Assembly: GCF_016026235.1 (NCBI RefSeq)
Contig: NZ_CP065613.1
From: Escherichia coli
GTDB lineage: Bacteria > Pseudomonadota > Gammaproteobacteria > Enterobacterales > Enterobacteriaceae
Direction: 5' to 3' (one strand)
DNA: 64,000 nt
Shown piece by piece: positions 19,262-21,889 of the stretch. Under the pieces are notes generated by a model. That model was not told where the DNA came from. It did not search any database and saw only the letters and a list, made by a program, of their open reading frames with translations. Within the stretch, counting starts at the first letter, position 1, and every line of letters begins with the position of its first letter. A program made the position numbers and the translations under genes.

Positions 19262-20314
19262 TTAATGAATTTCTTTTGCCACTACTAGCGCGACACCGCT
19301 TTTACCCTTCATTTGCAGCGCATAGACTCCACCAGCCACTACCACTAATAGTGCGCCCAGCAGATAAATCATTCGGTAGCCAGTATGTGCAACCATCATC
19401 CCCATCACACAGGCTCCCAGCGCCAGGCCTGCATCCATCGCATTGAAGAAGAGGGAGTTTGCGACACCGATTTTATGCGGTTCCACTGAACTGATAATCT
19501 GCGTCTGAAAAACTGGCGTCACGGAACCATACCCGATACCAATCAACGCGCCAGAAACAACCATCATTATGCTTCCCTGGGTGTAGCCGAGAACCACCAG
19601 TCCTACCGTAAAGAACACAAGGCAAGGGTAAACCACATATTTCGGTCCTTTTTTGTCGCAGACATTGCCGGTAAAGGTACGGCAGATCATCAGGAAGATG
19701 GCGTAGCAAAGCAGGAAATTACTGGCCGCCGACATCAGGTTAAGTTCGCGAGCATAAAGCGCCAGAAAAGCAGAAACCCCGGCATACGAAAAGGTCATAA
19801 AAAAGGTGACCATCGCAAATGGCAACGCCGCGCGATCGAACATGGCGGCAAAGCCCATTTTCGGCGTTGAACCATCAGCATGGCTGATAACCGGCGGCAC
19901 TGTCATAATCAGCGACAGAATAATCCCCACCGCTGCCACGCCGGTGCATAGCCAGAAAGCCAGATTAAAGGCTTCCCAGCGCGCCATATTCAGACCAATC
20001 CACGGCCCGACCACCATTGCCAGCCCCATTGCCAAAGAGAAAAAACTGATGCCCTCCCCACGTCGGGAGGCCGGGATCAGCCGCGCGGAAATCGTTCCTT
20101 TTACCGTAGTGATAACCCCGAAGGTAATACCATGAAGCACCCTAATAAAAAGCAGTGATTCTATTGAGTGGCAAAAAGGATACAGCGCAGAGACCACCAA
20201 AAAGGCCAGAGAAGAGAGCACCAGAATAGTTTTATTCGAATATTTACCCACCCATTGCCCGGCAAAGGGTCGAATAACAATCGCCGCAATTAAAAATAAT
20301 GTCACCAGCAGACC
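19262..20314 (-). pseudogene. MFS transporter gene, 3' portion (interrupted by IS4)
   Basis: 347-codon frame with multiple transmembrane segments; the track 'start' is a GTG 9 bp inside the frame. The frame runs straight up to the IS4 end and continues above the IS at 21740. Confidence 0.85.
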
Positions 20315-21739
20315 TAATGCCAGTCAGTTAAGCAACTGACTGGCTCTTTTTCGGGGCTGTGGGGTATTTCCAGGGCCTCTCCTTTACCACTCTCGGGAAG
20401 GCCCTTCCCCTTCTCGTCGGTAATTTCACAAGTTGTCCCATACTTGCAAGATCGCGCATCAGCTCCGGTATACGTCCCGGTGAAGCGCCCTGCAATGTCA
20501 TCAGCATTCTCATCACCATTCCGCATGATTCTGAGAAACTCAGTTGATTCGGCCAGTAACCTTTCAGATGTTCCGCCATTTTAATCATCTGATATCTCAC
20601 CAGATTATAAGCCAGTAAGACACCCCACAGCTCTTGCTCCACAAGCTCCGGCTTTTTACTTCTCAGCGTCAGCCTGCTCAGTTGCATCGTCTGTTTTATC
20701 TCCCTGTATCCCAGTTCGATTTCCCAGCGATGACTGTACAGATCCGCCATTTCTCCTCCGGGGAAGCGCATGGCGTCCGTCATCGACGTCAGCAGATGGC
20801 AGACTTTTCCTTTGCGCGTCACGGTCAGCAGGCGGGCTGTCACTTCATTTCCCAGTCCCGGCCACTTTTTTCGTGCCTGCGGGCTGGTTTTCAGCTTCAC
20901 CAGATGATCGCCTTTACCCAGTTTTCTGAGCTCTTCATATTGCGCTCCCTTTCTGAGAGGTATCATCCAGTGGCGGTGTTCTCCCGCCAGGCTCCAGGCA
21001 TTTAACAGTCCCAGTGAGTAATAACCTTTATCCATTAACGTCAGAGTGTTATCGCCGGTTTGTTCTATAAGTTGCTCAGCAAGCTCATTTTCGCTGTTCT
21101 TCATCGTGCCGAAGGCTGCAGCCGTCAGCAGATGGCTGGTCAGTTCCATCTGGCAGACCATTTTGACCTGCGGGTAGAGCGCCGGGTTCCCGGCATGTGT
21201 CTGGCGGGGAAGGCTGCATCGTTCTCTGGTGTATCCGGTGTGCGCCAGAACACACCATCGATGGCCAGCAGGGTCAGGCCGCACCAGTGCGGATGCGGCG
21301 TGGCGTTATGCCAGAGCTGCGCTGTTTTCGTGAACACGCGGCGGACAGCCTCACTTCCCAGGCGCTGGCGGGCCTGAATAACGGCACTGGGGGCAACGAA
21401 GGGGCGATTGCCCGGCAGCATGATGTCCAGGCGATTCACAATCTGGTGAAGAGGTTCTTTACGCTCAAGCGCCATGCCAACAATACACCAGACCATCATT
21501 TCGAGGGGAAGACGGCGCTTGCGTAGCGTTACAGTACCTGATTCGGCAAGGCAACGAGAGATGAGTTCGGGGTCGAGGTAATCCCCCAGAGAAGTCAGTG
21601 GGTTACGCAGAGAATCGTAACGGGATACCAGATCAAGAGCCTGTCCAATGTGCATAAAAAAATCCGGAAACAAGTGAGCGTTTCCGGATTCTTACACAGC
21701 CACTGGATCGGTCAACTGATCCTTAACTGATCGGCATTA
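20315..21739 (-). mobile_element. IS4 insertion sequence (1425 bp) with 12-bp target duplication CACCAGCAGACC
   Basis: Ends taatgccagtcagttaag... (20315-) and ...cttaactgatcggcatta (-21739). Identical 12-mers caccagcagacc at 20303-20314 and 21740-21751. Carries an IS4-family DDE transposase. Confidence 0.93.
20328..21655 (-). pseudogene. insG: IS4 transposase (InsG-like), split by a frameshift
   Basis: N-terminal ORF 21140..21673 (MHIGQALDLVSRYDSL...[22 protein letters not shown]...) and C-terminal ORF 20328..21284 (...[19 protein letters not shown]...[14 protein letters not shown]...) overlap in different frames. The frame switch maps near the G4 run at 21206-21209. Confidence 0.85.
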
Positions 21740-21889
21740 CACCAGCAGACCAGCTTTATCAGGGGATGCATGGAGACGATCGGAGATATAAATAGGTAAT
21801 AAGGTCAGCAACACATAAAAGACGAAAAAGATAATAAAGCTAATAATGGTGATTGCCCAAAAATCTTTCGTCCATAATTTTTCTTTCAT
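21740..21889 (-). pseudogene. MFS transporter gene, 5' portion (upstream of IS4)
   Basis: MKEKLWTKDFWAITIISFIIFFVFYVLLTLLPIYISDRLHASPDKAGLLV, then a stop supplied by the IS4 terminus. Joins in frame with the 3' portion once one copy of the 12-bp duplication is removed. Confidence 0.8.

Follow-up and report, generated by a model that had tools for sequence, protein, structure and literature searches.

An IS4 insertion splits a predicted MFS transporter gene between inaA and glpQ in an Escherichia coli lineage

In the 64-kb stretch of Escherichia coli contig NZ_CP065613.1 (assembly GCF_016026235.1) analyzed here, hereafter the window, a copy of the insertion sequence (IS) element IS4 lies within a gene for a predicted major facilitator superfamily (MFS) transporter between inaA and glpQ. 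We consider it close to certain that a single, ordinary IS4 transposition split this gene, and that the resulting loss of the transporter has been inherited within a lineage and is probably neutral. Excision of positions 20315-21751 in silico (i.e., the element and one copy of its target duplication) yielded a stop-free open reading frame (ORF) of 1191 nt on the minus strand (window coordinates 19262..21889). Thus, the two halves join in frame once one repeat is removed, as the original prediction, made from the sequence alone, had proposed. The restored product is 396 aa long, matching the roughly 400 aa expected; it starts MKEKLWTKDFWAITII and reads ...DKAGLLV followed by TLFLIAAIV... across the junction. 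Residues 14-347 match PF07690 (MFS_1; E=1e-59, 202.7 bits against a cut-off of 33.4). The restored gene is 99.9% identical over 100% of its length to genes annotated as 'MFS transporter' in seven complete E. coli genomes, and it differs from the intact allele of strain 88-3493 by one nucleotide, a non-synonymous change (S88T). The listed ORFs 19262-20305 and 21737-21949 are therefore two halves of a single pseudogene. The features of the insertion are as follows.

19262..20314, minus strand: 3' part of the MFS gene (codons 47-396 and stop), including one duplication copy; called by the gene caller from a GTG start at 20305 as an ORF of 347 aa
20303..20314, no strand: target-site duplication copy 1, CACCAGCAGACC, encoding GLLV (codons 47-50) on the minus strand
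20315..21739, minus strand: IS4 element, 1425 bp, identified by its identity to K-12 IS4; its transposase is co-oriented with the MFS gene and inaA
20315..20332, no strand: transposase-distal terminal inverted repeat of IS4, TAATGCCAGTCAGTTAAG, part of a hairpin followed by a T-run (20319-20344)
21722..21739, no strand: transposase-proximal terminal inverted repeat of IS4, reverse complement TAATGCCGATCAGTTAAG, matching the other end at 16/18 positions
21740..21751, no strand: target-site duplication copy 2, the identical 12-mer CACCAGCAGACC
21740..21889, minus strand: 5' part of the MFS gene (codons 1-50), with the first predicted transmembrane helix and a loop, reading into a TAA made by the IS4 end

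The IS4 element and its target site

The identity of the element and of the repeats that bracket it was confirmed at each boundary. Alignment of 20315-21739 (1425 bp) to the annotated IS4 of K-12 MG1655 (4502090-4503515) was end to end, with 99.5% identity over 1426 positions (six substitutions and one gap). Its ends, TAATGCCAGTCAGTTAAG and TAATGCCGATCAGTTAAG, form imperfect 18-bp terminal inverted repeats with 16 of 18 positions identical; they start (T)AATG, which agrees with the end signature of the IS4 subgroup, -AATR (PMC2266710). The ORF fragments within the element matched the Pfam domains PF13006 (Nterm_IS4, E=8e-34) and PF01609 (DDE_Tnp_1, E=5e-28), and the model NF033592 ('IS4 family transposase') scored 303.8 bits on the intact orthologue against a cut-off of 115. 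The 12-mer CACCAGCAGACC is present at 20303-20314 and 21740-21751, as originally described, and has no third occurrence on either strand of the 64-kb window; the chance that an exact 12-mer recurs at the other IS boundary is ~4^-12 = 6e-8. Target duplications of the IS4 subgroup are 10-13 bp (PMC2266710), and the perfect 12-bp duplication here is within that range; 14 other IS4 copies carry duplications of 11-14 bp. A search for a second IS4 copy within the window found none.

For some elements of the IS4 subgroup, target specificity in the arms on either side of the duplication is described as 'spectacular' (PMC2266710). We rebuilt the empty sites of IS4 copies gathered by an exact transposase look-up, together with that of K-12. 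Fifteen independent sites, the window site included, revealed a common layout, in which an A-tract, ~3 nt, a GC-rich duplicated core of 11-14 bp, ~3 nt and a T-tract follow one another, and several of these reconstructed sites resemble bidirectional intrinsic terminators. The window site, ataAAGct-GGTCTGCTGGTG-acaTTaTTTTT, agrees with this pattern. A weight matrix was built from 12 independent sites, with the window site and the flank-similar sites L018 and L019 left out; among 125,040 positions of the IS-free window it placed the real site 12th, and no position within the MFS gene scored higher. An earlier matrix that included L018 and L019 had put the real site at the top of all 125,040 positions; that matrix was discarded because these two sites had surfaced through flank similarity to the window, which biases the score. 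Thus, IS4 transposed here in its normal way, guided by sequence to a good target.

Two further observations concern IS4 targets. The best-scoring predicted target of the window lies at ~57292-57335, a palindromic, terminator-like sequence (AAAAAAAACCGCCGAACATGTCGGCGGCTTTCT) that is unoccupied. In addition, many matches fell at a recurrent IS4 target inside the IS66-family accessory gene tnpA.

In the proposed mechanism, IS4 would have inserted once, after codon 50 of the 396-aa MFS gene between inaA and glpQ, at a site chosen for its fit to the target preference of the element, and fill-in of the staggered target cut would have produced the 12-bp duplication. An ancestor of the carriers, a small E. 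coli/Shigella-like lineage, would have acquired the insertion and passed it on. The IS4 copy may later have dropped one G from a run of five, unless this is a sequencing error.

Carriers of the insertion and the transposase frameshift

IS4 was found at this site in 0 of 5426 complete E. coli RefSeq genomes (no place covering at least 80% of the query). Other public assemblies do carry it: the exact 347-aa truncated product, or the same junction, was present on 21 contigs, with carriers including GCA_900449985.1, GCA_001907535.1, GCA_001907545.1 and the Logan assembly of SRR13627094. Protein records matching the truncated product are labelled Escherichia coli. Among these carriers, GCA_900449985.1 (L004) spans the whole IS4 within a 4.56-Mb contig and differs from the window by one base in 13,044 aligned (window 13262-26304), while two draft carrier assemblies differ by 1 or 2 substitutions over ~7 kb. 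The closest complete genome, FDAARGOS_943 (99.9% identical over the adjacent 23 kb), has an intact MFS gene and is one of the seven genomes that match the restored gene at 99.9%.

A second insertion in the window provides a relative date. A 768-bp IS1 at 13135-13902, with an InsB-type DDE_Tnp_IS1 ORF at 13150-13653, is flanked by a 9-bp duplication (TAAGACGGC, at 13126-13134 and 13903-13911) and lies ~30 bp past the end of a 1250-aa ORF (9350-13102). GCA_001907535.1 shares the IS4 insertion and lacks the IS1 of 13135-13902, so the IS4 insertion is older than the IS1 event. The 21 carrier contigs, together with an IS4 insertion that predates a polymorphic IS1, point to an insertion that is fixed in a lineage rather than confined to one isolate. 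The knockout is nonetheless young, as its perfect repeats and nearly unmutated coding sequence show. Of the 'simple, recent knockout' first proposed, the simplicity therefore stands, while recency holds only in a relative sense, since 21 contigs share the insertion and it predates the IS1. The exact junction, missing from every complete genome searched, should be a handy marker of the lineage.

The original prediction overlooked a 1-bp deletion in the transposase gene at 21206-21209. As sequenced, the 442-aa transposase frame is split into frames of 171/177 aa and 318 aa:

21140..21655, minus strand: N-terminal transposase fragment, 171 aa from the native ATG, with Nterm_IS4, ended prematurely by the frameshift
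20328..21284, minus strand: C-terminal open frame, 318 aa, with the DDE_Tnp_1 catalytic domain, out of frame with the N-terminal part
21206..21209, no strand: G4 run with the 1-bp deletion, relative to G5 in K-12 IS4 and GCA_900449985.1

The window has G4 at this position, whereas K-12 IS4 and the orthologous copy of GCA_900449985.1 have G5; the missing G is the sole difference from GCA_900449985.1 in the 13,044 aligned bases, and the latter encodes an intact 442-aa transposase. The window copy is thus a degenerate or mis-sequenced IS4 and not a different element. If one G was indeed lost, the copy could be moved only with transposase supplied by another copy. Programmed -1 ribosomal frameshifting was considered and rejected: the 145-nt overlap of the two frames contains no X XXY YYZ heptamer and no long homopolymer, and the missing slippery heptamer leaves such a mechanism without sequence support.

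Whether the missing G is a real mutation or a homopolymer error stands at roughly even odds. We give slightly less than an even chance to a sequencing or polishing error, under which the element would encode a normal 442-aa transposase. This would explain why the orthologous GCA_900449985.1 copy has G5 while the two sequences agree at every other position across 13 kb. All other IS4 indels but one in related long-read assemblies fall in G/C runs of 4-5, and these indels disagree between orthologous copies (L029 versus L035, and L014 versus L025). The G4 form was found in only 17 of 2564 IS4-bearing records of complete E. coli genomes, and the window copy carries none of the substitutions to which the deletion is linked elsewhere. 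That linkage, however, argues against error as a general explanation. In 10 copies, at several sites and in several genomes, the same deletion is linked to substitutions ~725-800 bp away (A at alignment column 1333 and usually T at 1255), and the linked substitutions occur in 0 of 13 intact Shigella-type copies. Because random errors would not yield such linkage, the deletion is likely a genuine, inherited allele in at least one sublineage of IS4.

The same 171-aa product is recorded from many contigs, and the deletion recurs in IS4 copies L020-L025, L029 and L031-L035 (CP026824.1, CP026845.1/CP026844.1, CP026810.1, CP027027.1 and JBEAAA010000004.1). Some G4 copies carry fresh 12-bp duplications at chromosomal and plasmid sites in Shigella-like genomes. 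These data suggest that a frameshifted IS4 sublineage reached new sites, with assembly error as a confounder. An unbroken transposase gene is a hallmark of the IS4 family, and studied members act mostly in cis. We consider it unlikely, although worth stating, that the deletion is real and marks a frameshifted, non-autonomous form of IS4 that is still spreading, in which case frameshifted copies would, unexpectedly for this family, be mobilized in trans by intact ones, or, alternatively, that the G/C5 run acts as a reversible on/off slippage switch. The target-preference reconstruction and the possible spread of a frameshifted IS4 are modest by-products of this work for researchers of insertion sequences.

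The interrupted transporter and its locus

The duplicated 12 bp correspond to codons 47-50 (GLLV), where the second hydrophobic segment of the restored protein begins. A crude hydropathy scan revealed hydrophobic segments along the entire protein, which overlapped and were not separated into 12. The search for its closest characterized relative, proposed at the outset, placed the protein in MFS_1 and brought no close characterized relative, NCBIfam matches being below their cut-offs. The best of these, NF003477 (PRK05122), scored 110.6 bits against a cut-off of 374, and the best 25 of 30 matching NCBIfam models were all far under cut-off. The nearest solved structure in a PDB sequence search was NorA (E=3e-13, N-terminal half only), and homologues from Salmonella, Klebsiella and Kluyvera (83-91% identity) bear only the labels 'MFS transporter' or 'predicted arabinose efflux permease'. 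Attempts to give the transporter a functional name from NCBIfam, the PDB sequence search and the homologue names thus returned only generic MFS or efflux-like matches. Because no named subfamily claims the protein, we refer to the disrupted gene as that of a putative, uncharacterized MFS transporter, closest in its matches to efflux-type proteins.

The transporter gene has an intact divergent partner:

21890..22053, no strand: divergent intergenic region between the MFS and LysR genes, 164 bp, a presumed shared control region with weak consensus promoter matches only
22054..22932, plus strand: intact LysR-family regulator, 292 aa, with Pfam HTH_1 and LysR_substrate domains, divergent partner of the MFS gene

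The regulator matches PF00126 (HTH_1, E=1.5e-19) and PF03466 (LysR substrate-binding, E=8e-36) and has the same protein sequence as the regulator annotated in strain 88-3493. Its divergent arrangement with the MFS gene, conserved across genera, suggests that it may regulate the transporter. In Salmonella the MFS-LysR pair lies between yfaE/nrdB and glpQ, and in Klebsiella between yfaE/nrdB and glpA. Because its position matches in both genera, the pair is ancestral and not recently acquired. The truncation would make the window a transporter null with an intact regulator, because the 5' fragment, which encodes the first helix, stops at the TAA of the IS, and the 3' fragment lacks the promoter, the start and the first helix. 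A transporter without its first helix is unlikely to be functional.

The locus is variable among strains, as had been suspected. An intact gene (at least 80% retained) is present in 1227 of the 5426 complete genomes, a partial remnant in ~3100 (K-12 among them), and ~1060 gave no match. Between inaA and glpQ, K-12 has only the small pseudogene anticipated there, yfaH, and no equivalent of window positions 19369-22692. K-12 keeps only the 3'-terminal ~107 bp of the MFS gene and ~240 bp of the LysR gene, the latter being yfaH, which corresponds to the last ~65 residues of the window LysR protein. The 68-aa 'hypothetical protein' model NF007272 scored 134.9 bits on LysR residues 226-290, against a cut-off of 139. 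A literature search for published work on yfaH or the inaA-glpQ locus gave nothing relevant, and the locus is absent from the supplements of a study of IS in Shigella (PMC7373316). Thus, E. coli lineages lose an ancestral enterobacterial MFS-LysR pair in different ways, by deletion in K-12 and by IS4 insertion into the transporter gene here. Because most E. coli lost the same gene pair by deletion, loss of the transporter is probably neutral.

Sequence identity to K-12 changes across this interval, from 98.8% at 18000-19368 (the inaA side) to 93.5% at 22693-24500 (the glpQ side), which suggests that a recombination or allele boundary may coincide with the variable MFS-LysR interval.

Could the insertion instead have been selected, either because a disadvantageous efflux or uptake activity was lost or because read-out transcription from IS4 altered inaA expression? 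We consider this improbable. In its favor, the carriers form a lineage in which the insertion is fixed; inaA, downstream, shares its orientation with IS4 and the MFS gene; and Shigella and enteroinvasive E. coli (EIEC), in which IS4 has expanded, offer documented cases of convergent gene loss through IS elements (PMC7373316). Across all lifestyles, however, most E. coli either lack the gene pair or have it deleted, a distribution better explained by dispensability than by selection in one lineage, and the landing place is explained without selection because the site is a strong, sequence-determined IS4 target. Consensus scans for promoters and terminators round the locus returned matches not above those in shuffled sequence, and promoter-like matches in the region were no commoner than in shuffled sequence, which offers read-out transcription no support. 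An assembly artefact (repeat collapse or mis-joining, with the transporter intact in the organism) is all but untenable: IS copies are a classic source of mis-assembly and no complete RefSeq genome carries the insertion, but the same junctions recur in independent assemblies and in the Logan assembly of a public sequencing run (L004-L007), L004 spans the entire element inside its 4.56-Mb contig, and a perfect 12-bp duplication at an IS4-consensus site is the signature of transposition, not of mis-joining.

We found no evidence that contradicts the insertion itself. Several points nonetheless temper the broader account of a single IS4 transposition followed by inherited, neutral loss of the transporter. 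The 347-aa 3' ORF has a GTG start within the duplication and is translatable in principle; the null state of the transporter is read from its truncation, and the neutrality of its loss from distribution; and the transposase frameshift hangs on one base in a homopolymer. With these points taken into account, the locus holds a dispensable gene turned into a pseudogene by an ordinary IS4 insertion, a kind of event that is already known and holds nothing novel. Its significance is mainly for annotation, as it explains the split ORFs and the content of the inaA-glpQ interval.

Other repeats in the window lie apart from this locus. Near-tandem 81-bp repeats at 16869-16949 and 16956-17036 (96% identical) run from just after the nrdA stop into the listed nrdB ORF, and are also present in strain 88-3493 and related assemblies. 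At 30664-31117, two pairs of direct repeats, ~110-118 bp long and 90-93% identical, begin in the 3' end of a YhgA-like (Transposase_31/Rpn-type) ORF (29949-30920) and continue downstream.

Comparison with known systems

The best family and structure matches of the restored protein are YfcJ/YhhS-like MFS proteins (PRK05122, PRK12382), CntE and NorA-type pumps, and it aligns over its full length to 12-helix MFS efflux-type proteins. The scores to the YfcJ/YhhS-like models (the 110.6 bits above, and 84.7 bits against a cut-off of 364) are such that no substrate can be transferred from these matches.

The window IS4 and the single IS4 of K-12 MG1655 (insG) share 18-bp terminal repeats and a transposase with Nterm_IS4 and DDE_Tnp_1 domains. 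The K-12 copy also has a 12-bp target duplication but occupies another chromosomal site (4.50 Mb), in line with the original expectation that K-12 carries its IS4 elsewhere. The two differ in length (1425 bp in the window, 1426 bp in K-12), the transposase ORF of the window copy being split by its 1-bp deletion, and the six substitutions that separate them represent an allele common to the Shigella-type copies retrieved. At the inaA-yfaH-glpQ locus, K-12 likewise lost the transporter; there, a ~1.9-kb deletion took most of both genes, whereas in the window both genes are whole and the transporter is interrupted by an IS.

The closest parallel for this mode of loss is the IS-mediated pseudogenes of Shigella and EIEC, in which IS4 is one of five expanded IS and gene interruption is widespread (Hawkey et al. 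2020, PMC7373316). The window likewise combines an IS4 interruption with an IS1 that carries a 9-bp duplication 6 kb away; its IS density, however, is modest in comparison, at two in 64 kb.

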